A stretch of 64,000 bases of DNA from an uncultured Methanosarcinales archaeon (lineage in GTDB: Archaea; Nanobdellota; Nanobdellia; Woesearchaeales; CAYVYK01), in contig CAYVYK010000005.1 of NCBI GenBank assembly GCA_964455675.1, positions 1-64,000 of the forward strand, written 5' to 3'. This document shows, piece after piece, positions 3,732 to 60,592 of this stretch (positions are counted from its first letter, which is position 1; each line of letters opens with the position of its first letter). Under the pieces are notes generated by a model. The model saw only the letters and a list, made by a program, of their open reading frames with translations, did not search any database and was not told the origin of the DNA. Position numbers and translations under genes: made by a program.

Positions 3732-4240
3732 AGAAAAAAATTCGAAAAGTTCTGGAAATACCCGACGAAAAGAAGTACGACGTCCATATCCCAAAGTCTC
3801 TCCCGAAATCTATTGTTAGTGTGAAGTATATTCCACAGGAGAAGAAGACTCCAAAGGTTGAACCAACAAAGCTGGAAAAGCTCTCCGAGCCAGTGTCCGT
3901 CGAGGAGCCCGATCGCTCTGGTCGTCCGCTTGAGGATACTGTTGCCGCGGAGCCCGGGCCGCATGTTTCAGAGGCGGAAGTGAGGGCGTATGAATCCCAT
4001 CTTGCTGCAAAACCCATGCCCGAGCTTTACAACAGGATTCGAAATCTCTACGAGGACATCAAGGAGTCCGGCACGATGGACGCGGATCAGTCCGACCAAC
4101 TTTACCACTTGCGGAATGCGATCCAGCAGAAGGAAAAGGATATCGAACGCGGAAGATACGCAGCTTCGCAGGCGGTGGCTAAGCAGTTGAGTCTCGCGGA
4201 AAAGATTGTTGATGACCTTCTTGGTTCCTATCGTCGATAA
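3725..4240 (+). CDS. Hypothetical protein
   Basis: 171-aa ORF overlapping the upstream stop (translational coupling). Confidence 0.7.
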   Translation: MVKKKIRKVLEIPDEKKYDVHIPKSLPKSIVSVKYIPQEKKTPKVEPTKLEKLSEPVSVEEPDRSGRPLEDTVAAEPGPHVSEAEVRAYESHLAAKPMPELYNRIRNLYEDIKESGTMDADQSDQLYHLRNAIQQKEKDIERGRYAASQAVAKQLSLAEKIVDDLLGSYRR

Positions 4241-4296
4241 TATTCCAGCTGTTTCCTGCTCTCTTGTTGCATCAGTGGTATTTTTTGTTTATTTGA

Positions 4297-4497
4297 GGTT
4301 AACACTGGCAATAAGCGATTTCTTCAGAGCTGGGCGAAGCCTCGGTAACCAAAAGCTGCGACCATCGAAGAAACCTAGATGAGAGGGCAGTGCAAGGAGC
4401 GAACCGCTTAAAATATGGTAAACACCCTGAACGCAGTGATCGCACTGCATGGCTCCTCGAAAAAAGAAGCGTATCTTTCATATACTACCTGTTAGAT
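4297..4497 (+). repeat. attC-like element A
   Basis: Starts GGTTAACACTGGCAATA and ends TACTACCTGTTAGAT (GTTRRRY); imperfectly complementary ends; internal hairpins. Confidence 0.55.
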
Positions 4498-4601
4498 TCT
4501 TTTTTACGAAGTAAAAACTTCGAGCGAAGCGAGAAAGTATGACGGAAGAAAAAATTGGGTGTAGAAGACAATTTATATATTTATTATAATAAAGTTCTCT
4601 G

Positions 4602-4847
4602 ATGAAAAAATTATTCACAATTTTTCTGGTTATTTTAGTGATTTTAATAGCTGGCTGTAACTCAAAATGTGGTCCGAACCAATATGAAGGTTGCGACAGG
4701 TCTTGTAAGACAGATATGGATTGTAAAGTAGATATATGTGCTGGCTGTGTGAACGTAGGTGTAAATATGGATTATTCGCACGGACCAATTGATTGTATAT
4801 CTCCCCTATCATGTAAATGTGTTAATAATAAATGTTCACCAGGATAG
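4602..4847 (+). CDS. Small Cys-rich lipoprotein (cassette 1)
   Basis: MKKLF + hydrophobic stretch + IAGC lipobox; many further Cys; TATA TTTATATA at 4572-4579. Confidence 0.75.
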   Translation: MKKLFTIFLVILVILIAGCNSKCGPNQYEGCDRSCKTDMDCKVDICAGCVNVGVNMDYSHGPIDCISPLSCKCVNNKCSPG

Positions 4848-4860
4848 CCCAATTTTTTCT

Positions 4861-5010
4861 AAGTAACATCGGAATTTAACGAAGCTGAATTTCCCACGAG
4901 TCTCGGCAACCCCCAAGAATCGTGCTGGAAATTCAATTGGGTAGAGCAGGGGAAATCGCTTGGCGATTTGGGCGACAACGACCCTGCGAACCGTTAAATT
5001 CCTGTTAATA
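4861..5010 (+). repeat. attC-like element B (copy 1 of 142-bp repeat)
   Basis: TAACATCGGAATTTAACG...CGTTAAATTCCTGTTA terminal inverted repeat with a bulge; 4867-5008 matches 9901-10042 with 3 differences. Confidence 0.8.
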
Positions 5011-5183
5011 TTCGTCTGACCAAAGGGAAGACCTGATTTTTAGTGCAACGATGCAAAAGGCAAAAAATCAGAGTCGTCGTGTGTACCATATAGTCGTGGG
5101 GGTTGCCGAAGTTCCGTAATAATCATCCAATAGTGACAACAAAAGAGAAAGCTTTAAATAGCTGCTCTTTCTATCTTTAATCT

Positions 5184-5270
5184 ATGGTTGCAGAATCAAA
5201 GATTCAAACTTTGGAAGTTAAGAAGGATTTTGCTAGTTCTAACTCGATATGTTCTCATCATCATCTGTAA
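5184..5270 (+). CDS. 28-aa peptide MVAESKIQTLEVKKDFASSNSICSHHHL (leader or precursor peptide candidate)
   Basis: ATG about 24 nt after TATA TTTAAATA (5153-5160), consistent with a leaderless transcript; followed by hairpin AATCTGG/CCAGATT. Confidence 0.5.
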   Translation: MVAESKIQTLEVKKDFASSNSICSHHHL

Positions 5271-5407
5271 ATCTGGCTTATTTTCCAGATTGTGAATTAC
5301 TTTCAGTTTAGTCATAATTCTGGTTTCTAAGTTCAGATCATCATTGTTTCAGATTAATTTATTTTCTAAAAAATGGCTGACATCCAAAACTGTCGGAGGA
5401 AAAGAAA

Positions 5408-5479
5408 ATGGAAAAACAAACAAGTACCAAACAACTAGAGGCTAAGGCGCAAGAAAGCGCTGGTTGTATTCATTGCTAA
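5408..5479 (+). CDS. 23-aa peptide MEKQTSTKQLEAKAQESAGCIHC (precursor peptide candidate)
   Basis: GGAGGA Shine-Dalgarno directly upstream; ends in CxxC; precedes the ATP-grasp-like gene. Confidence 0.5.
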   Translation: MEKQTSTKQLEAKAQESAGCIHC

Positions 5480-5555
5480 TAGTGATAACTCTTTTCAAGT
5501 ATTATCTACTATAGCAAGACTAAGCGGTGGAACCTATGATGAGCTACCAGATATT

Positions 5556-6851
5556 GTGTCAGACTGGCGAAGATTCAGAGGGCCATTTTATAGACTGAAT
5601 GATCCACTAAGTTCTAAAGAAGAGACCTCAATTGCAGAAAGATACCTGAGTCAGATGTTACTTTGTGGAAAACCTGATTCAATAGATCTAAGGAGATGGT
5701 TTATTAAGTGTTTAAGTAATGACCAAACCGCATTTACTGGATTTACTTCTTTAGTTGACGTTGTTGAGTCCGAAGCATTAGGATATGATGGCACTATCAG
5801 ATTGTTACCCTCTGCGTCTTTTGTTGAACCATTTGCTGTTGAAAGATTGGACATTGCTGGACGTGAAAAACTGTTCGGGATTAAAGAAAGATTGGACAAA
5901 CTAGACTCAACTAAGATAGAAGAAGTGAACGTGTTGGTGGAAGAGGCGGAAAGACTTTGTCCCATTGATGGGGGTAGAAAAAAAGGGAAAAGCCCGATCT
6001 TTTTTTATGGTGTGTCTGATAAACCATTCCAACTGCCCAAATCAGTGTATCAGAGGTTAGAAGAAGCCGCAAAAACCGCCTACGTCGCATTATGCTTGGC
6101 TACAGGAGATAATGGTAGAAATATCTTCACAGGTTCTGTTGATTTCATGCTTTGTGATAACGATATTTATCTTATTGATATAGGGACTCCTGCGGTGGGT
6201 TATGTTGCCGATATACTCGCAACTAGCCAAGCATTAGGAAGAAAACCTTCTGTGGGAATAGAAAAGATTGTTTCAACACTCAACGGAAAGGTTACAATTC
6301 CTCAAAGTACTCTATCAAGAGAATTAGGATTCTTTAAACAAGAGAAAGAATATTTAGTTTCTGAACTTAGAAAGAACGGTATTCTTGTTGAAGAAGTATA
6401 TGACGAAGTAAATGAGGCTATAGTTGATGGAAAATCATTGCCGAAAAGAGAATTTGACTACCTAAGCAGAAATCAACCTCTAAGAAATAGGATTCTTACG
6501 GGCGTAAACGGAAATTTGTCTGCATATGGTGTCAAAATACCCAAAGGAGCCATACTGCAACCTGATGATTTTGTATTGGCGAGATTTTATGAAACTTCCA
6601 GACTTGGAGAAGAAGATTATGGACTATTAATAAAGAAAAAGGTATTCTTCAAAGAATATGAAACTGGGAGTGGATATTTCAAACCATTGGTAACTCCAAT
6701 CTGGGGAAGAGAGATAATGGCAGACAATAAAAGGAGTAATCTTTTTGAGCAATTTGTACCTAGCCTCTTAGACATTGATGTGAAAGGAGACAGAAGAGGA
6801 AAGCGATGCTATGAAATCAGGATGTATTTTGTTGGGGGTGAAATCAAATGA
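5556..6851 (+). CDS. Circularly permuted ATP-grasp / glutathione-synthetase-like peptide ligase (putative)
   Basis: SVDFML..IYLIDIGTP and FEQFVP..YEIRMYFVGG resemble ATP-grasp motifs in permuted order; frame is open from 5439 so the start is uncertain. Confidence 0.55.
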   Translation: MSDWRRFRGPFYRLNDPLSSKEETSIAERYLSQMLLCGKPDSIDLRRWFIKCLSNDQTAFTGFTSLVDVVESEALGYDGTIRLLPSASFVEPFAVERLDIAGREKLFGIKERLDKLDSTKIEEVNVLVEEAERLCPIDGGRKKGKSPIFFYGVSDKPFQLPKSVYQRLEEAAKTAYVALCLATGDNGRNIFTGSVDFMLCDNDIYLIDIGTPAVGYVADILATSQALGRKPSVGIEKIVSTLNGKVTIPQSTLSRELGFFKQEKEYLVSELRKNGILVEEVYDEVNEAIVDGKSLPKREFDYLSRNQPLRNRILTGVNGNLSAYGVKIPKGAILQPDDFVLARFYETSRLGEEDYGLLIKKKVFFKEYETGSGYFKPLVTPIWGREIMADNKRSNLFEQFVPSLLDIDVKGDRRGKRCYEIRMYFVGGEIK

Positions 6852-7381
6852 TAAAAGGAATTATTTTTGATTTTAACAGAACGCTGTACATTCCAGAGCT
6901 TCAACAAATACCGGAAGAGACTATTGAATTGCTCAAGAATCTTAGAAAGTCTGGCCTTTCTTTGGCTTTGATCAGCATTAAGGAAGCTCACAGAGATACT
7001 TTAATCGAATCATATGATCTTTCTTCTATTTTTTCTGTTACTAAAATTGTGAGAGAGAAGGATACCAACATTTTCAAAGAAACACTTAGTCTTCTTGGAT
7101 GTCAGCCCAATGAGATTATTGTTGTGGGAGACAGAATAAAATCAGAGATAAAGCTTGCTAATCAGTTGGGAATCAAGACGATTTGGTATAAAAAGGGTAA
7201 GTTTAGCAATGAATTACCTACTGAAAAAATTGAGTTTCCAACTTGGACAATTAGTGATATATCAAAAGTGGAAGAAATAATCAAAGACGTAAACACTAGC
7301 AAATCTTTAGTAGACAGAGCAATCCAATCGAATCCAGAAATCTTTGATTTTGGACTATCTGTCTCGAAGGGACCAAGGTAG
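6848..7381 (+). CDS. HAD-superfamily hydrolase
   Basis: IIFDFNRTLY motif I; VVGDRIKSEI motif IV; overlaps the upstream stop (ATGA). Confidence 0.85.
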   Translation: MIKGIIFDFNRTLYIPELQQIPEETIELLKNLRKSGLSLALISIKEAHRDTLIESYDLSSIFSVTKIVREKDTNIFKETLSLLGCQPNEIIVVGDRIKSEIKLANQLGIKTIWYKKGKFSNELPTEKIEFPTWTISDISKVEEIIKDVNTSKSLVDRAIQSNPEIFDFGLSVSKGPR

Positions 7382-7416
7382 CAACCCCGTTATTATTTTA
7401 CACGACGATTGAGCAT

Positions 7417-7430
7417 AATTCCTGTTATGC
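7417..7430 (+). repeat. Right arm of attC-like element C
   Basis: AATTCCTGTTATGC; AATTCCTGTTA is identical to the B and D right arms; left arm degenerate (possibly AAACACTAGCAA near 7291). Confidence 0.5.
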
Positions 7431-7608
7431 GCCCCGACGAGCAAAGCGAGGAGAACGCAGTGGGGTCGAGCATTAATTCCGTAGGAAAAAAGCGGAGAAG
7501 TTAAATTTAATTTTCATGTCAATTCTGCGAGGCAGAAAACATCTTAGGGGAATTCTCTCTCAATCTCGAAGAGCCATCAAGATAAACGTTTAGACCAACA
7601 CTTTCTCA

Positions 7609-8568
7609 TTATGGCATGAATAAAAATTTATGTTCTTTATACCATAATAGATGGTGATATTTTTTTATGGACTTCCCAAAAAGGTTTCTAATTTCGTCCA
7701 AGACTTTCCTAAATTCCTCATAACTTTGGACTTCCATCTCGACTTCTAGGTCGTTTTCGCTTATTGTTTCATAAGCATAGATTATATTTGGATGTTGATG
7801 AAGAAAACTCAACATACTTTTTTTTATGTTTAAATCATCTAATTGTATCTCGATTTTATACCAATAATATCCTATTGTTTCTAAGTCAAGAATTACACGG
7901 AAATCAACTATTATTCCGTTTTCTATCATCTTTTTGATTCTATAATTAACGTTGGTAATGCTGATTCCTGTTTTTTCAGAAATTGAAACTGATGTCATCC
8001 TAGCATTAGGGGTAATCAATCTTAAAATCTGGATATCTTTATCATCAAACTCCACTTTTTCAGGAAAAAACATAACTTTAATTTTTTCATCTCCTCTTTT
8101 CTTATCAGAAAGATATGTTCTTTTGTATATATAGAATTTTGAGTATATGGCAATGTTCAAATCAAAGACGAATTTTCCAAATCTTTTTATTAAATCCTCT
8201 TTAATATCAAAAAACTCATATGTATTCTTGACCCAACATGCAAGACCTAAATCTCTAAATCCATCTATACTATTAACCCACCAGAATTGAGGGTGCTTTT
8301 TATAATATTCAATTACTTGATTTTCTTCTTCGGGTGAATCTTTTTGAAATTTAATAAAAAATCTGCAATTCAGATAACCTAACTTACTTACATCTATAAG
8401 CGTTTGATATCCTCTGATTATGCCTCTTTTTTCAAGCTGTTTTATTCTATATTGGACAACTTCTCTGCTTAGTTTTACTTTTTTGCCTATTTGTTTATAG
8501 CTTTGCCTACTATCTGAATCCAGTTGATAAAGAATCTGCCTGTCTTTCTTATCCAGTTTGTAGACCAT
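7609..8568 (-). CDS. Tandem (double) Lrp/AsnC-family transcriptional regulator
   Basis: Two HTH-RAM units: LDKKDRQILYQLDSDSRQSY..IGKKV and DDKDIQILRLITPNARMT; divergent from the radical SAM gene. Confidence 0.9.
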   Translation of the reverse strand: MVYKLDKKDRQILYQLDSDSRQSYKQIGKKVKLSREVVQYRIKQLEKRGIIRGYQTLIDVSKLGYLNCRFFIKFQKDSPEEENQVIEYYKKHPQFWWVNSIDGFRDLGLACWVKNTYEFFDIKEDLIKRFGKFVFDLNIAIYSKFYIYKRTYLSDKKRGDEKIKVMFFPEKVEFDDKDIQILRLITPNARMTSVSISEKTGISITNVNYRIKKMIENGIIVDFRVILDLETIGYYWYKIEIQLDDLNIKKSMLSFLHQHPNIIYAYETISENDLEVEMEVQSYEEFRKVLDEIRNLFGKSIKKYHHLLWYKEHKFLFMP

Positions 8569-8677
8569 AAATTAACTATATTGTCCATATTTATAAGTAT
8601 TATGGTTAAAGTGTAAAAATTATGATAAAAACTTTTATTAACATAGTCCTGTTAGTTTTCACTAAGGAGTTAATAAA

Positions 8678-9844
8678 ATGGAAAAAACAACCCTAGAAAT
8701 ACCAAAAAAATTTCAAAATGGTTTTCCTAGAGATTATCAGAACACTTTGCCTAATTGGGGATTTTTTTCAAGAGAAGATTTTGAAGCTAATCGAGGAAAG
8801 CTTTTGCTTTTAGATATAGACTTAGATCGGTACTGCTCCTTGCATTGTCCTGATTGTTTTAGGCAAGACAGTGCAGTAGATGATGCGGAGGATAAGAGAG
8901 ATTTAAGTTTTGGGGAATTGATTAAAATCATTGAGGACGGGAAAAAACTCGGGTTAAAATATGTTAAGATTTGTGGTGTTGGCGAACCAACGGAAAGCAG
9001 GAAATTCTTGCCGTTTGTTGAAATAATGACTAATATGAGTATAGGTACCGCAGTCTTTACAAAAGGGCAAGGATTAGGTAATGATGATGTTGCAAAAAGA
9101 TATCATGGGCGATATGGAATAAACACCGCTCAGGAATTAGCAGAGAGAATGTATCAACTGGATGTTAGTTTCATGTTGGGTTTTCATTCTTTTGATCCTG
9201 CAATTCAAGATCATGTTGTCAGAACACCAAACTATGCACAAATAAGAAATACTGCTTTAGAAAATTTAGTCAATGCTGGATTTAATAATTCGAATCCTAC
9301 ACGACTAGCTTTTTGTAATGCACCAGTTAGGAGCTCAACAGCAGATGATGCTTTCCCAATTTATATTTGGGCAAGAGAAAGGAATATTTATCCTGTAACA
9401 GCAGTATTAATGACGAGCGGGAAACAAATAGACCCTGAATTTCTAAAACAAAATGATTTAACACATGAACAAAAAGTTGAACTATGGACAAATATCTATT
9501 CATGGAATATTGAACATGGTTTTCAAAAATTAGACGAAATCGAAGCAGATGGAATTTCGTGTTTGCCTGGAGGTCATCCGTGTAATCAATTAAGAGCCGG
9601 ATTATACATAACTATGAAAGGCAATGTTGTAGGTTGTCCTGGTTACATTGAAAGCCAAGGAAATGTAAGGAAACAGAGTCTTGCAGAAATTTGGGAGCAA
9701 AGCAAAACAAGGCAAATTGCTGGAGATAGATTTAATACTGGCTGTCCTCCAAAAGAAGGCATAACAATTCCAACGACGCTTTATGCAGAAGTTTTATCCA
9801 ATTTGCAGAGCAAGTATCGTTCAAGAGAACGTGGGGCTCAATAA
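8678..9844 (+). CDS. Radical SAM enzyme with SPASM/twitch-like C-terminus
   Basis: CSLHCPDC (CxxxCxxC), GVGEPT, then C..GNVVGCP..GNVRKQSLAEIW..C; GGAG RBS. Confidence 0.9.
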   Translation: MEKTTLEIPKKFQNGFPRDYQNTLPNWGFFSREDFEANRGKLLLLDIDLDRYCSLHCPDCFRQDSAVDDAEDKRDLSFGELIKIIEDGKKLGLKYVKICGVGEPTESRKFLPFVEIMTNMSIGTAVFTKGQGLGNDDVAKRYHGRYGINTAQELAERMYQLDVSFMLGFHSFDPAIQDHVVRTPNYAQIRNTALENLVNAGFNNSNPTRLAFCNAPVRSSTADDAFPIYIWARERNIYPVTAVLMTSGKQIDPEFLKQNDLTHEQKVELWTNIYSWNIEHGFQKLDEIEADGISCLPGGHPCNQLRAGLYITMKGNVVGCPGYIESQGNVRKQSLAEIWEQSKTRQIAGDRFNTGCPPKEGITIPTTLYAEVLSNLQSKYRSRERGAQ

Positions 9845-9894
9845 AAAAATAAGAGAGAATTCCCGTTTTGTTCTAGAAAATTGAATTTAATTGC

Positions 9895-10044
9895 ATATAG
9901 CATCGGAATTTAACGAAGCTGAATTTCCCACGAGTCTCGGCAACCCCCAAGAATCGTGCTGGAAATTCAATTGGGTAGAGCAGGGGAAATCGCTTGGCGA
10001 TTTAGGTGACACCGACCCTGCGAACCGTTAAATTCCTGTTAAGT
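9895..10044 (+). repeat. attC-like element D (copy 2 of 142-bp repeat)
   Basis: Near-identical to element B; ends GTTAAGT (GTTRRRY). Confidence 0.8.
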
Positions 10045-10140
10045 ACGTTTCCAATACGCAAGTGTGGGAAACCTGCGTCCGCGGAGTAAAATTTCTATTT
10101 CCCCGATAGTTTAATAAACATTTTGGTATATGGTAATATT

Positions 10141-10296
10141 ATGGATAGAGATAAAATACAATTTTTTGCGGGATTGATACTTGCGCTTGGATCTGCAGTT
10201 TGGACTTTCTTCGGTTCGTTTCATCCAAGCCATACAATAATCTTAATTGTGGGATTAGGAGCAATAGTAACATCAAAATATAGATTATTGAAGTAA
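10141..10296 (+). CDS. 51-aa two-helix membrane peptide (cassette 4)
   Basis: Hand translation MDRDKIQFFAGLILALGSAVWTFFGSFHPSHTIILIVGLGAIVTSKYRLLK; TATA-like TTTAATAAA at 10110. Confidence 0.65.
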   Translation: MDRDKIQFFAGLILALGSAVWTFFGSFHPSHTIILIVGLGAIVTSKYRLLK

Positions 10297-10337
10297 GTAA
10301 TTATTTTCTACAATCCAGGAAATGGAAATTTTATTGA

Positions 10338-10483
10338 ACTTAACAACGGCATTAACAGAAGTTTTTTGCCCTCGTGAGCCCGAACCTCGTGAAACAGAGG
10401 TGCGAGAGCGAACAGTGATGACAAAACATTTGGGAAAGCGAAGTGCAACGATCTTTCCAGTATCTCCGCAAGAGAAAGTCAGT
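10338..10483 (+). repeat. attC-like element E (left arm present, right arm not found)
   Basis: ACTTAAC (RYYYAAC) + AACGG; exact complement of GTTAAGT that opens the same cassette; followed by short hairpins. Confidence 0.55.
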
Positions 10484-11341
10484 CTAGTCCATCTGCCCGA
10501 GCACTGATGCATTGATCTGTTTGGCCATGCCCATGTTCTTTATCACGGTGAGCTTGATAACGGACTTCTTATTGACGATTCTTGAGAGCTCTGTGATGTC
10601 AAGCTTCTCGAGTGTGGAATTCTTTCGGAAGAATACCTCGAGCGCTTGCACGATATCTGGTGGATACTGTGTCTGCACGATGAGATCTCCGTACGTTCCG
10701 ACGTAATACTTCCGGTCAAACGATGAGAGTGACGGATCGATCTCCATCTTCACGCCAATGTGGTGGTAGAACCTCTTAATATTTCGGTCAAGTGCAGTAC
10801 TGCCTATGGAGAGGATATATGACTTTATGCCTTTTTTCTTGAGTTTTCCCATGATCTGGCGTTCCCGGTCTGGATGCAGCAGGACTTCCCACGCGTGTGC
10901 TGCCTGGTACACATTGACATTGGGATCTCCTTTCTTGAGGTGTTTGTACCAATCGTCGATGAGGTCCTGCCAGAATACCATCATGTCATTGAGCGATTTG
11001 AATGTGAAGACCGCTATCTCGTTTCCAATAGCATCCTCTCGAGTAGGCTTGCTTTTCTGCTCATAGATCTCGGTGTAGAGGGTATCGACTTTCTGTTTGA
11101 GTTCTCGCACGTATTCACGGCTTATTGAGAATTCCTTGCCGGTTTGGTTAATGACTCCTGCAAAGGAAAGCTCGAGAAGCGCTTTGCGAACCGCCTGAAA
11201 CGTGATGGACTTCCCGTACCGCTTCTTGATAATATTCGTGAGATCAATAATCTTGAGTGGGTACTCCTTTGAGAGGATGGTGAACACCATGTCCTTTGCG
11301 CTATCGGTGCGATCAAGTGGTAATGATACTCTAATGGGCAT
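10484..11341 (-). CDS. Winged-helix transcriptional regulator-like protein
   Basis: N-terminal wHTH (ITFQAVRKALLEL...GVI) plus a C-terminal domain. Confidence 0.7.
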   Translation of the reverse strand: MPIRVSLPLDRTDSAKDMVFTILSKEYPLKIIDLTNIIKKRYGKSITFQAVRKALLELSFAGVINQTGKEFSISREYVRELKQKVDTLYTEIYEQKSKPTREDAIGNEIAVFTFKSLNDMMVFWQDLIDDWYKHLKKGDPNVNVYQAAHAWEVLLHPDRERQIMGKLKKKGIKSYILSIGSTALDRNIKRFYHHIGVKMEIDPSLSSFDRKYYVGTYGDLIVQTQYPPDIVQALEVFFRKNSTLEKLDITELSRIVNKKSVIKLTVIKNMGMAKQINASVLGQMD

Positions 11342-13644: not shown

Positions 13645-15783
13645 ATGATCTTCATGTACGGCAACTCGATGGATCGGGACTACATTGGTAACCTTGCCGA
13701 GGAGAAGAAAGTTGCTCCAAGGCAGACTCCCGAGATTCGGGCGTCCGATATCAGCCCCTCGGTAACCGAGGGTGGTAGGTTTGGCAATCTCATCCAGTCC
13801 GCGCAAGGCATGATCCGCCTTGGAGCCGCAAAGGTTGAGCTTCAGTTGCAGCAGGGTGGTGGTCAAGAGCCCGTTGGTCCTGATTCGTATGGTAAGGAAG
13901 CCCGTCAGACGTTGCGCGAGATCTCCAAGGTTAACCAGGTGCAGTTTGCGGCAGTGCATGCGCCGGTTACGGTGGGTAATGTTTCCGGTTTTAATCCCGA
14001 GACTGGTTTTTCTGAGCAGCAACGCGGGTCCTCTGTTGAGGAAATAAAGAAGGCAATTGAGTTTAGCGCCGATGTAGCGGGCGGTAGCCCGGTTGTCGTC
14101 CACACCGGCGAATTTTTCCGTCCCATGGAGGGTGCTGATTGGAATCGCAAGCTCGGTGAGGGAAAGAACGGTTATGAGTTTCTCGCCTACCAGGAAGAGC
14201 CTGGCCGAGCGATCAAGTATCTTGTTGATAGAAGGACTGGTCAGATCCAGGCGAATGTAAGGAAGAGCCAGATCTACATTGAGCCCAAATTCATGGGGGC
14301 AGAGCATGATATGGAGGGTTACACGGTCGATGGTAAGCGTAAAGTGCACATCAAGAAGGGTGACTGGGTGACCGAGGATGGCCGCTGGATTGACGCCACA
14401 AATCCTGATGAGTTGAAACTGCGCAAACCCTTCTGGGATCCGGAGAATAATAAGTTTGAGACGCAGACGCTCACATGGGAGGATATTGAGAAGCGTACGA
14501 AGTGGTGGAATGATCGTTATCGTGAAAAGGGTGAGCGTCCCATTAAGCCCGAGGAGATGGCGTTCCGTATCCAGGCAGAGAATGGTATCTTGCAGGCGAA
14601 GGGTAACGCGCTCTACTACTCAAGGCAGTATCAGGAAGCCGTGCGTGAGCGCGATGTATTGAAGCAGGTGCTCAAGCACTATCAGGACATTGAGAAGGAC
14701 GCTCCTCCTGAGGTCATTCGTGATATGATGATCAAGGACCCGCAGATCAATCGTGATCCGCTCGTGCGTCAGCTCTGGCCAAAGTACGATGAGCGTCGTC
14801 CAACGGTGGTAATTGAGGAGGCCTTGAAGCGCGCTGAAGCTGACGTGCTCTACATTCGGGAGGGTTCAGCGGCCGCGGATGCGCGTGCCGCGGAAATCGA
14901 GCTTTCCTTGCAGCACGTGATTCCGATGGAAGAGTATGCAAAGCAACAAAGTGCGCATTCTTATGCTGAGCTTGGCATTCATGCGATGCAGCAGACAAAG
15001 GAAAATCCTCATGTGAAGAAGGATGTGTTTGTCGCTCCTGAGAACATTTTTCCAGAGATGGGGTATGGTTCCCATCCTGAGGAATTGATCGAGCTCGTGA
15101 CCGATGCAAGGAAGCAGATGGTAAAGCTCCTCACGTCACCTAAGATTGAGGATCCTCACGGGCGAAGGAAGGCTGATGGTAGCCTTGAGCTCGTGCCAAA
15201 CCCGTACTTTCATAAGGGGATTGATGAACATAAGGCGGAGGAAATGGCGAACAAGCATATTCGCGCAACCCTTGACACCCAGCACTTGAGTATGTGGCGC
15301 AAGTACTTTCAGCCGCAGTATCAGAAGGGTGAGGGCAGGATGGAGACGCCTGAGGAGACAGACAAGCGCTTCAATAAATGGTACATAAACCAGGTCGAGA
15401 AACTGTCGCAGTCTGGTATACTCGGTCACATTCATCTCGTTGATGCGTTTGGTTCTGGTCATTCGCATCTTCCCGCGGGTCAAGGTAAGTTTCCGGTGGT
15501 TGATGCGGTGAGGTATTTGAAGAAGAAGGGGTATGATGGTTCTATTACGTCAGAAGGTTATGGCGAGAGCGCGTATGGACCTGACCGGATCTTTACGAAG
15601 GTTCTTGAGGCATTTGACAGTCCGACGTTCAGTGGCATGTACTCGGGTGGTTTTGGCAGGCCGAATTATTGGTCGGGTGTTGCGCAGTCATACTTTGGGA
15701 CGATGGTTCCGCCATACTTTATCTTTGGCGCGTACACTCCAAGTAATGAGTGGAAGTTCTGGAGCGAAGTGCCGCTCGAGTGA
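13645..15783 (+). CDS. Xylose isomerase/AP-endonuclease-2-like TIM barrel with a large insertion
   Basis: VHAP, VVVHTGE, APEN, TLDTQHL, HIHLVD, HLPAGQG and ITSE metal-binding motifs; long insertion between VHTGE and APEN. Confidence 0.75.
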   Translation: MIFMYGNSMDRDYIGNLAEEKKVAPRQTPEIRASDISPSVTEGGRFGNLIQSAQGMIRLGAAKVELQLQQGGGQEPVGPDSYGKEARQTLREISKVNQVQFAAVHAPVTVGNVSGFNPETGFSEQQRGSSVEEIKKAIEFSADVAGGSPVVVHTGEFFRPMEGADWNRKLGEGKNGYEFLAYQEEPGRAIKYLVDRRTGQIQANVRKSQIYIEPKFMGAEHDMEGYTVDGKRKVHIKKGDWVTEDGRWIDATNPDELKLRKPFWDPENNKFETQTLTWEDIEKRTKWWNDRYREKGERPIKPEEMAFRIQAENGILQAKGNALYYSRQYQEAVRERDVLKQVLKHYQDIEKDAPPEVIRDMMIKDPQINRDPLVRQLWPKYDERRPTVVIEEALKRAEADVLYIREGSAAADARAAEIELSLQHVIPMEEYAKQQSAHSYAELGIHAMQQTKENPHVKKDVFVAPENIFPEMGYGSHPEELIELVTDARKQMVKLLTSPKIEDPHGRRKADGSLELVPNPYFHKGIDEHKAEEMANKHIRATLDTQHLSMWRKYFQPQYQKGEGRMETPEETDKRFNKWYINQVEKLSQSGILGHIHLVDAFGSGHSHLPAGQGKFPVVDAVRYLKKKGYDGSITSEGYGESAYGPDRIFTKVLEAFDSPTFSGMYSGGFGRPNYWSGVAQSYFGTMVPPYFIFGAYTPSNEWKFWSEVPLE

Positions 15784-45158: not shown

Positions 45159-47087
45159 ATGGAGCGCGCAATTACAACCGAGGAGCTCTGTAGGCGTTTA
45201 AAGCCGATTTTTGGGAAGAAAATAGACCAATTGTATCTGAAGTATACTCTCACGGAGGGTCGCCGTGAGAAAGAAGAGATCGCGCAGTTTATTGCGGTCC
45301 TCTATGAGAAACACCTGGAGACAACGCTTCTCGGCGAGAAGATACTGCTCGTTCCGCCAAAGGAGAACGATGTGTCCGGAACCTACCCTCTTGGTATGGT
45401 AACATACGCTGATAAAGAATTGTATCCGTTCTGTATGCGCGACCAGGACTTGGTCCGTCACATCTGCATCACAGGTATGTCCGGTTCTGGTAAGACAAAT
45501 CTTGCTTTCCTCATCATCTCTCATCTTATCAAGAACAATATGCCGTTGATCATTTTTGACTGGAAAAAGAGCTTCCGGCCTTTGCTCAATCTTGACAAGA
45601 AGATGATGATCTTCACGATCGGTAAGAAGGAGACATCAAATATGTTCCGGGTGAATATCAACCGTCCTCCGCCAGGTGTCGATCCGACGGAGTGGATCGG
45701 GATACTCTGTGACCTGGTGAGTGAGTGTTTCTACACGAGTTATGGTGTTCATAAGCTCCTTAAGGAAAGTCTCGATCAGGCGTTTAAGGATTTTGGCGTG
45801 TACAAGGGGTCTGATAATTATCCCAATTGGTACCATATCAAAACTCGCCTTGAAGATCGTGCTGCTGAGATGCAGAAAGGTCGTTCGCATCGTGAGGCAG
45901 AGTGGATGGAGAGTGCTCTGAGAATTGCGCACTCGCTTACGTTTGGTAATTTCGGAGATGTGGTGAACACAAAGAAAGGGACGTACGTTGATGTTGAGGA
46001 CTTATTTAATATGAGGACGATCTTTGAGCTTGCCTCACTTGATACGTCGGAGAAGAAGTTTTTTTGTGAGTATGTCTTAACGTATATCTATAAATTGAAA
46101 AAAGCAAAGGTGAATCAGAAGCAGCCGTTCAACTTCTCTATAATGATTGATGAAGCTCATAACATCCTGCTTAAAGAAAAGCCTGTATTCATGCGTGAGA
46201 CGGTAACAGAGATGATTTATCGTGAGATTCGTGAGTATGGGATAGGCCTCATCTGCCTTGATCAGCATGTATCCAAGCTTTCCGAGACTGTTGTGGGGAA
46301 TAGCGCTACGTCGATAGCATTCCAGCAGATGCTACCTCAGGATGTTGAGACCGTGTCCATGGTTATGATGATCAAGGATTACAAGCAATACTTCACGATG
46401 CTTCCAGTTGGTGTTGCAATTGTCAAGCTGGCCGAGCGGTATTTCAATCCGTTCCTCATTAAGGTACCGCTTGCTGAATTCAAGAAGACAGAATACACGG
46501 ATGAGCAGATCGTTGAGCGTATGAATAAGCTCGCTCGTGATTTGATCCGTCAAAAATCGTTCAAGGAATCACTCAAGGACGACAATTTGAAGAAAGTTGT
46601 TGAAGGACTGAATCGGCTTGAGCATCTCCGTACCGAAGGCCGAGGTGACGAGAACCCTAAGGAAATGACTCCTGAAGAATACAATAGCCTCGTCGAATAT
46701 CTCTCGAGAAATGAGAATGTTCTCGAATTTCTGAAACTCGCACAGGGGAAACGGATGGGAACGACAGAATTATATACCAGTCTTGGATTGTCCACGAGGA
46801 AGTGTGATGAGCTAAAAACCGACCTCCAGTATAGGGGTTTAATTAAGGTGGAGGAGGAGCGCACTCCATCAGGACTGCGCAAGTTCATCGTCATAACTCC
46901 CAAGGGCAGGGAGATTTGCGAATACGTCACAAACCTAAAATCGGATTCCTTCAATGCGTCAAAAGGTGATGAGCCAGACGCTCACGACCCCGAGGTTTCC
47001 GAAAGAGGATCCACAAAACCATCATTGGCGAAGTCACAAAAAAGACAGTCAACCTCACATTCATCAAATAAACCATCCATAAAATAG
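45159..47087 (+). CDS. HerA/VirD4-like (DUF87) P-loop ATPase with C-terminal winged helix
   Basis: RHICITGMSGSGKT, IFDWK, IMIDEAH, REIREYG, LDQ; C-terminal GLIKVEE..ITPKG. Confidence 0.88.
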   Translation: MERAITTEELCRRLKPIFGKKIDQLYLKYTLTEGRREKEEIAQFIAVLYEKHLETTLLGEKILLVPPKENDVSGTYPLGMVTYADKELYPFCMRDQDLVRHICITGMSGSGKTNLAFLIISHLIKNNMPLIIFDWKKSFRPLLNLDKKMMIFTIGKKETSNMFRVNINRPPPGVDPTEWIGILCDLVSECFYTSYGVHKLLKESLDQAFKDFGVYKGSDNYPNWYHIKTRLEDRAAEMQKGRSHREAEWMESALRIAHSLTFGNFGDVVNTKKGTYVDVEDLFNMRTIFELASLDTSEKKFFCEYVLTYIYKLKKAKVNQKQPFNFSIMIDEAHNILLKEKPVFMRETVTEMIYREIREYGIGLICLDQHVSKLSETVVGNSATSIAFQQMLPQDVETVSMVMMIKDYKQYFTMLPVGVAIVKLAERYFNPFLIKVPLAEFKKTEYTDEQIVERMNKLARDLIRQKSFKESLKDDNLKKVVEGLNRLEHLRTEGRGDENPKEMTPEEYNSLVEYLSRNENVLEFLKLAQGKRMGTTELYTSLGLSTRKCDELKTDLQYRGLIKVEEERTPSGLRKFIVITPKGREICEYVTNLKSDSFNASKGDEPDAHDPEVSERGSTKPSLAKSQKRQSTSHSSNKPSIK

Positions 47088-47288
47088 CGAAACACAACAG
47101 CCTTTCCCTCACGCGCACACCAGCGTCAAAAAAATCGAGACGCATCCTTGCGCGTTGGAGAAATCCGCCCCACGTTTTCCCGAAAGAACCCCAAGGTTCT
47201 GTATCGGTACGACGTGAGAAAACAAGACGGATAAGGCCGGAAACGGGAAAAAACTGATTCCCGCTTCGCTGGGACACCACTGCTTCTG

Positions 47289-47332
47289 AAGAGTGAATTC
47301 TATAGGATTAAAGAGTGAATTCTATAGGATTA
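47289..47332. repeat. Perfect 22-bp tandem duplication AAGAGTGAATTCTATAGGATTA
   Basis: 47289-47310 and 47311-47332, at the left edge of the structured GC-rich block. Confidence 0.9.
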
Positions 47333-48320
47333 TAATCGGGTTCGAGACTGTCGACCCCTTCCCCACATGCCCGCCATGACCCTGGACCTCCTTCGTGAAC
47401 GCTGACCTTTAATCACTTTGTGGATTGGTTGTGGCGGGTTTGATATCAACGGGACCTCCCCCTCCTCTGGAGCGGTGCTTTCTCTACCGTGCGCTTCGCG
47501 CATGAGTAAAGACCGTGCCGCTCCTGAATATTTTCTATCTCCTGGGTAATGGAGAAGTTCTGATACTGAGGCGGCATTGCCTTCGCGCATGCGTTCCCCC
47601 CGCGCTGCCGGGTGATGCCGCCAAAAACAAATGACCGCCGCACAATCCCCTCTCGGATGATGTGTTAGTCTCTAGCCAGAACGTGCGGCGGTCATGAACC
47701 CTGCGGCACTGCTCTCGTGTAGGCGTTTCCCCCCACCGTCTCCGGACAGTGCCGCGTTGACTATCAGTAGTCTGGTGGGAGTGCTGCGGCTGGGGCCCGC
47801 AAGGCGACAGTATGCATTCCTCGCGCTGAAGGGAGCATCTGTCGCCACTGACTGAACTCCCTGCCGTTGGCCGTATGTGATTTCGGCTCGCCCGCGCCAG
47901 CGGCAGGGTGCTTGATACCCGGGCGACCACACGCCCACTGACCGAGGCTTCGTCAGCCGACGGAGCCTCCCTTCGGGGGCTGCACGGACAAACACGATGT
48001 TGCCACAGCATGAGTATCATCCCCTTGCTAACCTGCTTGTTGGAAACGTGGTAAGCCAGCACCGGTCGGCGAGAATGGATGATGCGATGTTCATCGTGCC
48101 GAAAGCCCCCATCAGTGTTGAATCACGCGTGGCCAGGACGCGTGTGTCGCCGTGGATGCTGTGGCGCTTGCAGCTTCTTTCGGCAGCGGCGGTTAGGCAT
48201 GGGCTCCCTTGGTCGAGGTAGCGAGACGTAAGGGTAGCGCCTGCGGGTTGGTCCTAGTTCGGGATCCTTTGCCCCCTTGCGGGGAGCCCATGCCCTGGAT
48301 CCACATACATAGTGTCCTAC

Positions 48321-48395
48321 GGGCTTTGCTCTGGGAGGGGAAGCGACGCGAAACAGTCGTCGTTGCTTACAAGGGTTCGACTCCCTTAAGGCCCC
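48321..48395 (+). ncRNA. tRNA-like domain lacking a D-stem
   Basis: Acceptor GGGCTTT/AAGGCCC; T-arm AAGGG-TTCGACT-CCCTT; 8-bp arm AAGCGACG/CGTTGCTT with a 12-nt loop. Confidence 0.6.
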
Positions 48396-49006
48396 GTGCC
48401 TTGGCAGGTTGCGCGGTCAACCGTTGACGGGTCTGCCAAGGCGTCACGTCATACTTGGGAGGTAGGTTCGATGAGCCAAGTCGTAAGGAAGCGCGGCACG
48501 AAGATGGAAGCATTGGTCGCAATGTCAACGAAGCGGGATGACCAGACGGATCGTGACACTGGTCATTGCCTGCAGATGGGGCAGACCCCATCCCACGTTC
48601 CCGTCAACCTGCCGGTCCAGCGGAGGCAGCTCAAGGCGAACAGGATCCACAGGGGCGAGCTTCCGATGGATTGAACCTCCCGGTTTGGATGTTCTCGTGG
48701 CTGTTCCCCAGTCACACCCTCGTCCGGGTCTTCGGCGAGGTGGTCGTCAGCCCTGCAATTATCGCGGGGCTCAGGTCCGGCGCTTGCCGGCCAAATGAGG
48801 GCCTTGGCTGAAATGGCCTCGGCTTTCACTCTGTGGCACAATGGTGTGCCGGTGCAGCGAGGGCGAAGTGCGGGTGTGTAACCTGCAAAATGCGTATGTG
48901 GAAGGTGCCCTCAAAATCCATCCCCGGGCATTCGCCATGAACCGTGTCGGATGTGCGGGGATCATTGAACTCCTCAGGGAATTCCCTGTTGACATAGATC
49001 GCAGCC

Positions 49007-49420
49007 TCTTTCCCCTCCGGAGCGCACCAGGCTTGGTATCCCTGTGATTCCTCCCTGGTGCCCTCTTTTGGGAATCCCCGGTCCGATGCCACGGGCCGCT
49101 GCTTGGCACTGGCGCCGATGACTACGAGAAACGTCGCACCAGTGCCTCTTGCCGATTGCCCAGCGATGGCTGGTTGGTCGATAGTGCTTCTTTCCCCTCC
49201 GGAGAGCACCGGGACGCCTTAGGCACTCGGTGCCCTCTTTGTCCGCTGACCGGGTCCTAGGCGAGGACCTGTCCCTCCATGCGGGTATCGGTGAAGACCG
49301 TTAAGCCGGTACCCGCCGTGCCGATTGCCCAGCGATGGCTGGTTGGTCGATAGTGCTTCTTTCCCCTCCGGAGAGCACCGGGATGGTGGTCCGAGCGGCT
49401 CCTCCTGGTGCCCTCTTTGT
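49007..49420. repeat. Three copies of TCTTTCCCCTCCGGAG(A/C)GCACC-variable-GGTGCCCTCTTT
   Basis: 49007-49068, 49150-49242, 49319-49420; copies 2 and 3 share 65 identical nt. Confidence 0.9.
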
Positions 49421-50807
49421 ACGTATTCGTGTTCCTCCCCGAAGGAGGTGCCTGCTCACCGAGGGTGGGCACCTCCCATGGGACACGTTGTTGATAGATG
49501 TCTCCCTTCGCTGGACGCGCTCGCGTTCCAGAAGAACGGCACCGATCCCGGCAAAGCTCGGTGCCGTCGTGCCCCTGATCCGTCGCTGACGGCCCTCCGT
49601 TCCCCTGATGGGCGAGCCATCCCCCGCCCAACGCCCTCATGGCTCGCCCAGTTTGATTCTGATCCGTTTGGCCCGACGGTGGAGTTCGCCATTGAGGCCT
49701 GTTGGTGGAGTGGCGACGCGGGAAGGCACCAGTGTGATCATCATCACACTGGTGCCGCTTGACTGTTCATGCGTACCCGTGCGGGGCGCATTGGGTGCTT
49801 CACCTAGAGATGGTGAGGCGGATGCGGCAGGGCGGCTCGGGACTAGACTGCCACGGCTCGAGCCGCCCATTGAGAATTCCGGACGGATTGATCCGTCCGT
49901 TCACGGCGATGATACCACTTTAGGAGATGGAGTATGGTGCTGAAATTCAATGGATGAGGCCCCAAGTGAATGGAGAGCGCGGACGTTTGCTTGGGGCGCG
50001 ATGGGAATTGACCGCGCGGTGATCACACCGAAAGCCGATGTGGGTATCGGCAGAGAGGAGAATACTTCTCGGTATGATTGTCGCAAGGGTACCTGGTTTG
50101 TCCGGACAGGCTGCCAGGTGAATGCTGACGACTGTGTCGGCACAATGGCTGGGGTGCATCCAAATATCAAGTCAGAAGGGTGTGCCCCCTAACCGTTGAG
50201 GGAAGAGCGCAGGTCAGAAGTGTTCTTGCACATCTGAGTTCTTCCGCATCCTGAAAGCGTGCATAGCGCGCTTGGACCAGAGGGAGGCGGTCCAGACCCC
50301 TTGGGTGCTGCGCGAGCCGCGGTCTCCCCACCCGATGAAAAGGGATCTAACCGCGAAAAAGCCTTACATCTTGGTGTTCGTCAATAACTCAAACAATCAT
50401 CACGTCCCATACGGACGCGGATCGAAAAAAAAAGGTGTTCGTCTAGCCACGGTCGGGAGCTGATCGCTTTCCCGCCCGAAAGGACGTCAGCGGACCTCTT
50501 CCTCCCAGGGGTCCGCCCTGTTTTTGTTCCAACAAGGCCAGTTGAGGAGACCTTATGGAGCACTGTCTGATGTTGTCCTCTGAGAATCGCACTATCATCC
50601 GCTTCGGATGAAACACACAAATGGACTCGCCATGGTTCCGTGGACCGCCGGGGCGAGTGAACACAAATACCGGCTAGCCGCGTGCAAGCGTCCGCGAAGT
50701 CACAGGCGTTATGCGGACGCGCGTGGACGAGGCAGGGGACAATAGCGCAGGAGTCCGGCACGCCATCGTCGGACATGGCGCATGTACCCTGATCCGCTGC
50801 CCGTCCT

Positions 50808-50873
50808 GGCTCGTCGTTCAGCGCCTAACAAGGTGCACTGGGTACTTAACCCTGAACGACGAGCCTTTTTTTT
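50808..50873 (+). terminator. Terminal stem followed by T8
   Basis: GGCTCGTCGTTCAG (50808-50821) pairs with CTGAACGACGAGCC (50852-50865), then TTTTTTTT. Confidence 0.65.
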
Positions 50874-59900: not shown

Positions 59901-59989
59901 ATCCATCACGTTAAGAATCAGAACTCCTCAACGGGTGCTAATACGAACTTTTAAATACTTAATATGTGTGCATTTTTAGGGTTAGGCAA

Positions 59990-60592
59990 ATGGCTTCCAG
60001 ACGCCCAAAAAGGCTACCAAAGTACCTCACAAGAGATGAGTTGCAAAGGCTCTTAAACGCTGCGGGAAGACCGATCGATCGCTTAATTATCCTCTTCCTG
60101 TACAACACAGGAGCTCGTGTCTCAGAGCTCGTTAATTTTCGAATTGAAGACATTGACTTCGAAAACCAGTCAATAACTATTTTTCGTGGAAAGGGAGCCA
60201 AAGACCGTACTGTGAACGTTTCAGAAGAGTTCCTAAATGAGCTTAGACGGCATATAAAAGACCGAAGAGAAGGTATTTTATTCAATAGTAACTGGAAACG
60301 AGCTTTCACGCAGAGAGCAATACAGAAAAAGATAAAAAACCTTGCGAGAATAGCGAAACTACCCTATCTGCATAAAATAACGCCACACACACTTAGGCAC
60401 ACCCATGCAGTGCATTCCCTTCAAGCTGGAGTCAATATAATCTCCATAAAGAAGCATCTGGGCCATGAAAACCTGAAAACAACAATGGTTTACACTGAAA
60501 TCAGTGATGAGGTTGTTAAACGTGATTATGAAGTCCATAAACCATTCAAACTTAAGAGAGAATCGGATCAACAAACGCTAGATTCCATTTAA
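59990..60592 (+). CDS. Xer-family tyrosine recombinase (catalytic domain only)
   Basis: LPKYL, YNTGARVSE, GKGAKDR, HTLRH, LGH, TMVY: complete R-K-H-R-H-Y set. Confidence 0.92.
   Translation: MASRRPKRLPKYLTRDELQRLLNAAGRPIDRLIILFLYNTGARVSELVNFRIEDIDFENQSITIFRGKGAKDRTVNVSEEFLNELRRHIKDRREGILFNSNWKRAFTQRAIQKKIKNLARIAKLPYLHKITPHTLRHTHAVHSLQAGVNIISIKKHLGHENLKTTMVYTEISDEVVKRDYEVHKPFKLKRESDQQTLDSI

Follow-up and report, generated by a model that had tools for sequence, protein, structure and literature searches.

Why should each gene unit of a tandem array be enclosed by an inverted repeat of its own? The question is raised by an AT-rich island at 4.3-10.5 kb of a 64,000-nucleotide (nt) stretch of archaeal DNA (GenBank assembly GCA_964455675.1, contig CAYVYK010000005.1, positions 1 to 64,000 of the forward strand), the whole of which is referred to here as the window. 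The GC content is 0.31-0.43 inside the island against about 0.49 outside, and the island holds four units: unit 1 with one open reading frame (ORF), unit 2 with two genes, unit 3 with two divergent genes and unit 4 with a small ORF. On balance we take the island to be an integron-type cassette array in which the units are separated by attC-like junction sites; both of its edges are decaying and no integrase adjoins the array. The two halves of each inverted repeat are called arms below. They probably form the base of an extended single-stranded-DNA stem of the attC-like site, a stem that the crossover would have split between the two ends of a cassette.

Paired arms around the gene units of the window

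The first-pass annotation of the window proposed that each unit is enclosed by its own inverted repeat. All six pairs are present at the coordinates given below for each unit, with 13/13 positions matching around unit 1, 9/9 and, nested within it, 8/8 around unit 2, 14/15 and 13/13 around unit 3, and 15/16 around unit 4. Intergenic segments were compared by taking the best ungapped inverted repeat, scored +1/-2, between neighbouring segments, and for each unit both segments were shuffled 400 times with dinucleotides preserved. The observed score was equalled in 3/400 shuffles for unit 1, in 3/400 for unit 3 and in 1/400 for unit 4. For unit 2 (9/9) it was matched in 262/400, which is chance level on this segment test. 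On the shuffled control, then, the proposed repeats stand beyond chance for units 1, 3 and 4, and that of unit 2 does not.

The inverted-repeat score is 13 around units 1, 3 and 4; non-neighbouring segment pairs score 8-10 with one exception. This exception, the non-cognate pair B-D with a score of 13, matches 5097-5109 to the hairpin loop of a junction element. The slightly longer stretch 5094-5109 also pairs 15/16 with this loop, so there are two candidate partners for GGGGTTGC, the nested arm of unit 2. Direct-repeat scores lie between 7 and 11 in all segment pairs but one, where the value of 133 reflects the two junction copies matching each other. The unit 2 arms on their own are weak. 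The 9/9 arm, however, begins directly after the module end '...AG' and stops directly before 'TT-N6-AAT', and it gains weight because this anchored position is the arm position in 25/34 cassettes, a prior that comes from other genomes and is described next.

The same architecture in other arrays

A species-representative genome collection was scanned with the two stem halves of the junction site, and 33 loci were found, mostly in DPANN archaea. Sites were then placed with a descriptor consisting of AAC, 2-4 nt, a 10-nt stem, a loop, the complementary stem, 0-2 nt and GTT. Looser descriptor sites (penalty 2, AT-rich stems) appeared to be noise and were not used, except for L004 13886-14016, and the sites at L004 14548-14691 and L004 15636, as well as those of the window, were placed by hand. 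The cassette set, which was chosen by sites only, comprises 33 cassettes from 13 arrays; the anchored test below has n=34.

The locus L004 has at least eight sites within 5.8 kb. Read by eye, every cassette there has the same order: GTT-N6, a GC-rich module ending ...RAG, the left arm, an AT-rich promoter-like box, the gene or genes, the right arm, TT and N6-AAC. A second, inner arm pair is frequent. The GTT-N6 at the start of a cassette (R') and the next N6-AAC (R''), together termed the R boxes, are complementary at 7/9 or more positions in 22/33 cassettes, and at 9/9 in 19/33, as against 43/1056 mismatched pairs. The integron rule that a cassette start complements its own inverse core is thus followed in the family, and in the window by unit 4 only.

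The arms were scored with the R boxes excluded. The best end-to-end inverted repeat reached 12 or more in 21/33 cognate pairs versus 24/1056 non-cognate pairs, and 13 or more in 16/33 versus 6/1056; in the direct-repeat control between cognate ends the value never exceeded 10. In the anchored test, the 10 nt just 5' of TT-N6-AAC were taken, and the initial 200 nt of the same cassette were searched for their reverse complement, one mismatch being allowed. It was found in 25/34 cognate cases (15 of them perfect) versus 21/1122 non-cognate ones. With the window and L004 set aside, both of which had first been read by eye, 15/23 still pass, and all four window units pass with one mismatch each. 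It is clear from these figures that the pairing of the arms and their position are general features of the cassettes, and that related arrays in other genomes have paired arms too. The first-pass annotation also held that sequences differ between cassettes and pairing is kept; indeed, 21/21 strong arms are distinct. Furthermore, one compensated arm pair separates two L004 cassettes with homologous flanks and modules (TTGAGAAAAAGGC/GCC... versus ...GAC/GTC...).

One part of the original description needs revision, namely that the arms are separate from the shared junction elements. The arms begin exactly where the conserved recombination-site sequence ends, and they extend the junction's own R-box pairing (the 9/9 complementarity of 19/33 cassettes). 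The left arm is preceded by '...RAG' in most anchored matches, and 'ATT' stands before the 9-mer in 29/33. Three cassettes of L015 have no module, and in these the arm lies directly 3' of the R box (matches at position 11), which agrees with the prediction of a continued stem. A reading of the arms as fossil R boxes was also considered and set aside; it fits one L004 cassette and not the others.

Two loci in bins labelled as bacteria, L015 (Peregrinibacteria) and L031 (Torokbacteria), contain arrays built on this type of site, in which cognate R boxes and arms are both present, and a SET-domain-like gene in an L031 cassette is 74% identical in DNA sequence to one in the archaeal L004 array; these arrays point to cross-domain sharing of cassettes or to mis-binning. 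In L004, 10319-10826 is a single cassette with two small adjacent genes, which from their size and layout by eye we took for a toxin-antitoxin pair. Such pairs are common in chromosomal integrons.

The junction-site family

The two full junction sites of the window, J1 and J2, are 97% identical. Their predicted fold as single-stranded DNA is a three-way junction with GGAATTTAACG/CGTTAAATTCC and TAACA/TGTTA as its closing pairings; the energy is -34.5 kcal/mol (z -5.97), and 0/200 shuffles were as stable. The 33 loci related to them are labelled mostly as Woesearchaeota, Pacearchaeota, Nanoarchaeota and Aenigmatarchaeota, with some Methanosarcinales, candidate phyla radiation (CPR) bacteria and Atribacteria bins; the bins labelled as bacteria or Methanosarcinales may be mis-binned. 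The family was aligned with MAFFT as 34 sequences, made up of 32 loci and the two window copies, with L018 left out.

Among these 34 sequences the family ends are invariant (TAACATCGGAATTTAACGAAGTT ... AATTTGGG ... CCGTTAAATTCCTGTT), and the interior hairpins are of a few types, variously combined. Conservation ends at ...AAC on one side and at GTT... on the other, and the bases outside are variable. In attC sites the inverse core and the core show this same pattern, and the invariant AAC-side and GTT-side ends of the 34 members, together with the fold of J1 and J2, are those of an attC hairpin. Different, internally complementary L stems were found at many sites, although the descriptor itself required complementarity. 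RNAalifold on the family alignment recovered the outer stem only, with 15 pairs of which none is changed on both sides, because the interior hairpins are different, reassorted types.

One hairpin-1 type occurs with four hairpin-2 types, and many combinations exist among the 34 junction sites. These combinations suggest that sites often exchange parts at the conserved central AAATTTGGG or that gene conversion takes place between them. The reassortment had also brought to mind a crossover in mid-site, which was considered and rejected, since the L stems are complementary within a site and different between neighbours. In integrons the crossover falls between G and TT of the core, with one strand exchanged on the folded bottom strand. 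An indirect hint at such a place here is the end of conservation at AAC and GTT, and the L stems, which covary inside each site and are different in the next, argue against the middle of the site.

A blastn search of the window with J1 returned two full copies only, and the family-wide search added two decayed sites, J0 and J3. Two intervals that had been annotated as junctions in the first pass, 7405-7520 (z -0.46 to +0.10) and 10334-10483 (z -0.18 to -0.37), are not significantly folded, and J3 as delimited here is likewise not strongly folded when DNA folding is compared with shuffles. The notion that the arms are copies of inner hairpin strands of the junction was dropped, the blastn match being weak (E ~0.5 at 4543-4566). 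A further locus, L018 6072-6210 (Anaerolineales bin), proved to be a different element, a 47-nt hairpin with the same 11-nt stem halves, of which there are two copies 92 nt apart; it failed to align with the family and was omitted from the alignment and from the flank comparison below.

The module and the strand that folds

The GC-rich module has a marked strand asymmetry. The 20 delimitable modules (1326 nt) contain 23 copies of CGAAG and none of CTTCG, and in all loci and the window each of the two pentamers occurs about once per kb. The GC content of the modules is 0.48 versus 0.38 overall, GCGAAGC is found 9 times and CCGAAGG 6 times, and these two motifs as well as GTGCAAC lie on one strand of the modules. 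GCGNAGC mini-hairpins are described as extraordinarily stable DNA structures (PMC13037366) and d(GNA) loops as likewise exceptionally stable (PMC3201870). The structures treated there were isolated oligonucleotides, whereas here the motifs lie within cassette modules. GNA mini-hairpins may have a role in these recombination sites.

A single-stranded fold had been proposed in the first pass as either DNA or RNA. DNA is favoured by the one-strand signature (23 CGAAG versus 0 CTTCG) and by the tyrosine recombinase genes near the sites, and RNA is disfavoured by the divergent genes of unit 3: no single transcript spans both of its arms, and an RNA fold is therefore unlikely. A search of Rfam found nothing at gathering score in the window as a whole, nor at E up to 1 in 4200-10600. 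The one-strand signature, the divergent genes of unit 3 and the lack of an RNA family match together argue that one DNA strand, the + strand of the window, would fold, and not a transcript.

Linear and circularised forms were also compared by folding in silico, as the first-pass annotation had suggested. Circular junctions, formed by the right end, site and left end of the same cassette, are predicted to be 9-23 kcal/mol better than array junctions in 10/10 cassettes, with 21-36 pairs between the two cassette ends. Such a gain is to be expected because the arms are repeats, and it means no more than that the fold is reasonable in thermodynamic terms.

Assignment of sites to payloads

Flanks of 160 nt were compared for all family members. 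Upstream flanks, in the orientation of the window + strand, are alike in 1/465 pairs and downstream flanks in 74/528. The downstream likeness as a rule starts at the base next to GTT and extends to 40-70 nt, which is the module, and sometimes to 158 nt. In single-site loci with a recombinase gene, the order is chromosome, site, module, payload, half site and recombinase. This flank homology and gene order favour assignment of the site to the payload downstream of it, and it is likely that a cassette consists of site, GTT-N6, module, left arm, payload, right arm and TT-N6-AA. The classical orientation would then be the reverse complement of the window + strand, and the strand that folds would correspond to the bottom strand of classical integrons. 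The structural conclusion is the same whichever payload the site belongs to.

Recombinase genes near the sites

The window encodes a XerA-like tyrosine recombinase at 59966..60592 (+ strand) of which only the catalytic part is present (Pfam PF00589, E 4e-35; positions 86-263 of 263 of the XerA profile NF040815). It is short by about 85 N-terminal residues. When 59629-60592 was examined, no in-frame start for the missing N-terminal domain was found in the AT-rich 340 nt upstream; the protein is either truncated or has an unusual start.

A tblastn search with this fragment found a match in 8/33 loci, and in 8/8 of these the recombinase gene lies 0.8-5.2 kb beyond the last site and on the same strand as the site. 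In most of the 8 loci the gene is preceded by N6-AAC with a short or missing hairpin and no clear GTT. Judged from sequence alone, this half site looks like an attI. The half site (N6-AAC, ATC, then TATTAAGCG... and a short or eroded hairpin) stands 60-120 nt before the recombinase start in L019 (10781-10880) and in L006, L012, L030, L028, L009 and L022, and it is conserved among L006, L012 and L019.

The L019 recombinase (266 aa) matches archaeal XerA best, with 216.8 against a cut-off of 220. With the integron integrase profile TIGR02249 it scores 192.6 against a cut-off of 265, in two stretches, the best of which starts at profile position 238; the first TIGR02249 stretch of the window protein stops at profile position 181. 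About 56 profile positions would thus be unmatched, presumably the region of the integron-specific insert. The IntI-specific domain near patch III was not found in the L019 recombinase.

Organisation of the window array

All features in this section lie on the + strand unless stated otherwise. The left edge of the island is formed by J0 (4301..4423), a decayed attC-like junction site with degenerate R boxes, in which 4319-4373 matches the hairpin-1 part of the family by blastn (E 5e-9). Unit 1 starts with the R'-like GTTAGATTC (4491-4499, read from the sequence) and a GC-rich 5' module (4500-4546), which carries GCGAAGC and CGAAG and has the layout of the modules of other arrays. The left arm AGAAAAAATTGGG (4547-4559) pairs 13/13 with the right arm CCCAATTTTTTCT (4848-4860), which lies immediately 3' of the stop codon and overlaps the R''-like CTAAGTAAC of J1 (4859-4867). 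Between them, 4602..4847 encodes an 81-aa Cys-rich protein with a lipoprotein-like N-terminus, for which no family and only weak signal-peptide-type matches were found. J1 follows at 4865-5006, with the form AAC-ATC-GGAATTTAACG ... CGTTAAATTCC-T-GTT.

Unit 2 has the R' GTTAATATT, read from the sequence and starting at 5004, and a module (5013-5073) with the hairpin CTGATTTTT/AAAAATCAG around AGTGCAACG, ending ...CAGAG. This module is homologous to the one 3' of the L027 site (L027/win_4871: 89.8% over 49 nt). The left arms TCGTCGTGT (5074-5082) and GGGGTTGC (5099-5106) match their right arms 9/9 and 8/8; the latter are GCAACCCC (7381-7388) and ACACGACGA (7400-7408), followed by TT. The payload (5556..7381), with a GTG start at 5556, comprises a 431-aa protein without a Pfam or NCBIfam match and a 177-aa HAD-type hydrolase. 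About 450 nt between the left arms and the first long ORF (5107-5555) contain no ORF of 50 aa or more and, by eye, short frames only. The border with unit 3 is a reduced site, GAGCATAAT-TCCT-GTTATGCGC (7411..7432, with GTTATGCGC from 7424), which has R-box-like ends only and a small hairpin GCATAA/TTATGC.

The module of unit 3 (7433-7500) is of the ...GGTCGAGCA...AGCGGAGAAG type, as in the L004 modules 14023-14091 and 14698-14758, and it ends GAGAAG. The outer left arm TTAAATTTAATTTTC (7501-7515) and inner left arm GGGAATTCTCTCT (7548-7560) match 14/15 and 13/13 with the right arms GAAAATTGAATTTAA (9876-9890, followed by TT) and AGAGAGAATTCCC (inner, 9852-9864). The two payload genes are divergent and encode a double AsnC/Lrp-type regulator (7609-8568, minus strand) and a radical SAM/SPASM protein (8678-9844, plus strand). 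J2 (9899-10040, or 9893..10046 with R boxes) has an R''-like GCATATAGC, in which AAC is mutated to AGC, and the R' GTTAAGTAC from 10038. The module of unit 4 (10047-10086) carries the hairpin GTTTCC/GGGAAAC and GCGTCCGCGGAG, ends GCGGAG, is of a type also found in L004, L030 and L014, and is 93.6% identical to the L010 flank. The left arm TAAAATTTCTATTTCC(CCGATAGT) at 10087-10102, extended to 10110, matches 15/16, and 24 nt match at 83%. The right arm (10310/10318-10333, arm 15/16) is followed by TT and the R'' GAACTTAAC, to 10344. The payload here is a hydrophobic ORF of 51-57 aa (10141..10296) without a family. J3 (10342-10465), a decayed junction site with a degenerate 3' end, forms the right edge of the island; its blastn matches to the family are 10395-10458 (E 2.3e-11) and 10341-10394 (E 1.1e-5).

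The cognate R boxes of the window vary. In unit 4, R'' agrees with the reverse complement of R' GTTAAGTAC at 8/9 positions, 7 of them contiguous, and in the printed strings of units 1, 2 and 3 only 5, 4 and 6 of 9 positions are complementary. The array of the window is therefore partly decayed.

Protein family searches of the payloads revealed no transposase domain in the window units, and a tRNA scan of the window gave no match. Elsewhere the window has an archaeal look, with genes for an eRF1-type factor, an aIF2-type GTPase, the ribosomal proteins L1 and L10, a CCA-adding enzyme of archaeal type and FtsZ. Around 46800-51200, about 3 kb have a GC content of 0.55-0.62 versus about 0.49 in the window. 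There is no long ORF in any frame of this region, only many short overlapping stop-to-stop frames on both strands; neither a tRNA nor an Rfam match at E up to 0.1 was found in it, and 47289-47332 is a 22-nt tandem duplication. It could be a heavily broken foreign gene or a non-coding element of a new type.

Discussion

If the arms are indeed the base of the site's stem, a junction site folded as single-stranded DNA would consist of an R box (N6-AAC/GTT-N6), a bulge (ATC versus T), an 11-base-pair (bp) L stem and a variable branched tip. Beyond the R box the stem would continue for 9-17 bp more (an outer clamp) and often for a further 8-16 bp (an inner clamp). The GC-rich module of 40-75 nt would lie in one strand between the R box and the clamp and would fold on itself into GNA-triloop DNA mini-hairpins. 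The full site would then be a long interrupted stem made up of inner arm, outer arm, module bulge, R box, bulge, L stem and branched tip. The crossover would take place at the R box, within this long stem, and the halves of the stem base would therefore end at opposite ends of the cassette, so that each integrated cassette would come to lie between the halves of an inverted repeat peculiar to it. Once the cassette is excised as a circle, or where the DNA of the array is single-stranded, the arms would pair again and complete the site. The recombinase, for which the XerA-like protein is the candidate, would read the structure together with the conserved AAC/GTT and L-stem bases, and the arms could drift in sequence because only complementarity would be needed. 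The classical integron rule, which concerns the six bases after G|TT, would here be stretched to some 25-45 bases.

The looping suggested by the first-pass annotation is a variant of this explanation rather than its opposite. There, the arms and the cognate N6 would zip up within the array, loop out the payload and join the flanking sites, which would give each cassette its own address for excision. The arms are unique to each cassette, and a cognate R'/R'' pair (9 bp) with its arms is far stronger than the pairing of a site with the neighbouring GTT-N6 in the array. However, 0.3-2.5 kb would have to be single-stranded at once, and one R helix would be common to two L stems, unlike the two-site synapse known for tyrosine recombinases. 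The sequence features fit the circle model equally well. Array-level looping is rather unlikely, though a serious contender. Alternatively, the arms may be by-products or relics with no present role, left by the way cassettes were built, for instance by gene capture in the loop of a long palindrome that was already there, or kept perfect by correction of one arm from the other each time the hairpin forms. Two L004 cassettes with the same module and outer arms but different genes would fit this, as would the decay of the window array and the arm pair TAAAGTTGGGTGCC/GGCACCCAACTTTA, which holds an R-box-like GTT...AAC pair and whose similar sequence is used as a real R' by the homologous L031 payload. 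Yet the GTT/AAC signature is missing from most arms, and perfect or near-perfect arms in 25/34 cassettes of many genomes, always in register with the R box, would be hard to keep without selection or an active process; we therefore consider a relic origin improbable.

The remaining explanations fare worse. RNA-level pairing of 5' and 3' transcript parts, which would serve processing or circularisation in the manner of archaeal bulge-helix-bulge stems, has a precedent in that long-range stems around genes exist in archaeal RNA processing. It is nevertheless very improbable, given that divergent genes lie between the unit 3 arms, that the left arms appear by eye to be upstream of TATA-like boxes, that the GNA triloops are of DNA type and on one strand only, and that the perfect arms, in a window without an Rfam match, lack a bulge-helix-bulge pattern. 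Inverted repeats exactly at the border between unique and conserved DNA are also what a small transposon (a miniature inverted-repeat transposable element, MITE, or an insertion-sequence-like element) between the junction elements would show. But the bases outside the arms are a conserved ...AG and TT with no target duplication, the N6 pairs outside the arms and across the module are also cassette-specific, no window unit has a transposase, and there is no common end for a transposase to act on because all 21 strong arms differ; such an origin we would all but dismiss. Finally, chance matches in AT-rich DNA would account for the unit 2 arms when taken alone (262/400 shuffles), and a perfect 14-mer inverted repeat does exist at unrelated positions (5324-5337/6360-6373). 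For the whole set, chance is rejected by the shuffles and by the end-to-end and anchored tests, and its probability is negligible.

Several observations weigh against an extended, split stem as the explanation of the arms. The set of 33-34 cassettes is small, was curated by hand after the hairpin descriptor and comes from loci found with one stem motif. The anchored test was failed by 9/34 cassettes; 6/9 of these also have no cognate R boxes, and because of this a site was probably missed in those six, but three failures have cognate R boxes (L004 at 13208, L011 at 2930 and L030 at 9110). Single-stranded folding of site and arms is a prediction. The homology of J1 and J2 stops exactly at GTTAA and is followed by different module types, which fits the opposite assignment of site to payload. 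In the window itself R' and R'' of units 1-3 match poorly, two sites have decayed and of a third only the ends are left, and it may be that this array is inert and its arms are relics. Furthermore, the sole recombinase of the window is N-terminally truncated and lies 50 kb from the array, and the array-linked recombinase of L019 falls under the NCBIfam cut-offs for both XerA and integron integrase and has no integron-specific insert. Integron-type chemistry is an analogy for this last reason.

Should the extended stem be functional, integron-type sites can far exceed the textbook attC, and part of the site would travel at the far end of the cassette. The arms would allow a site to be assigned to its payload from sequence only, and in genomes of DPANN and CPR, of whose sites standard attC models recognise the core only, they would show which cassettes are intact and where these end. 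The enzyme that drives a cassette platform may be Xer-like and lack the integron-specific domain, which bears on the origin of IntI from Xer recombinases. Dozens of arm variants with the same geometry would provide a natural test of structure recognition versus sequence recognition, and the question of how genes become cassettes is touched as well. More speculatively, and with considerable doubt, DPANN archaea and possibly some CPR bacteria might carry a distinct XerA-type cassette system with a multi-helix single-stranded-DNA substrate of more than 200 nt drawn from both cassette ends. In such a system the arms would be the address for cassette-precise excision, since only cognate ends would pair, and the GNA module would nucleate folding or prime second-strand synthesis. 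Correction templated by the hairpin, and not selection on each base, might keep the arms perfect.

Comparison with known systems

The literature on attC in DPANN, on Woesearchaeota integrons and on cassette inverted repeats, in which subscription attC papers were mostly not covered, contained no description of such arms or of such a module. The main text of Ghaly et al. (2022, PMC9668308) reports clusters of attC sites in archaea, including Nanoarchaeota; the terms 'inverted repeat', 'stem' and 'complementar' have zero occurrences in that main text, and its supplements could bear on the point. Apart from its recombinase, the array itself is thus of a known kind, and the cassette-specific stem extension and the module are apparently new.

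As in integrons, there are tandem gene arrays with imperfect hairpin sites whose ends are a conserved ...AAC/GTT... and which have a bulged spacer and a variable tip; a cassette is complementary at its start to its own site, strand-specific features lie on the folding strand, and a tyrosine recombinase gene stands, in some loci, beside what may be an end site without a full hairpin. Arrays without an integrase are common there too. In integrons the six bases that follow G|TT are part of the next cassette and pair with its own inverse core. The first-pass annotation knew of no such clamps described for classical integron cassettes. The length and the module appear to be new, but the principle that the start complements its own site is classical, over 6-7 bases. 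Here the R-box complementarity covers 9 bases, the stem runs 9-17 bp and often 8-16 bp more past the R box, and one strand has a conserved GC-rich mini-hairpin module. Classical cassettes are mostly promoterless, co-oriented and single-gene, and are read from a common promoter. The cassettes described here carry one or two genes in either direction, with two genes in units 2 and 3 and those of unit 3 divergent, and appear to have their own AT-rich TATA-like boxes after the left arms, as read by eye. The array-linked recombinase, too, differs in being XerA-like, 266 aa long and without the integron-specific insert.

In CTX-phi-type filamentous phage, Xer recombinases integrate single-stranded DNA where two inverted sites fold into a hairpin. 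The present system would share with it a Xer-family recombinase acting on a site that is formed only by folded single-stranded DNA; the phage, however, has one site per genome, no arrays, no cassette-specific stem extension and no module. Foldback and MITE-like elements are similar in that unique DNA is bracketed by inverted repeats. Their repeats have a family consensus and target duplications, whereas here neither a shared terminal consensus nor a target-site duplication nor a transposase was found, and every pair of arms is different and in register with a recombination site.

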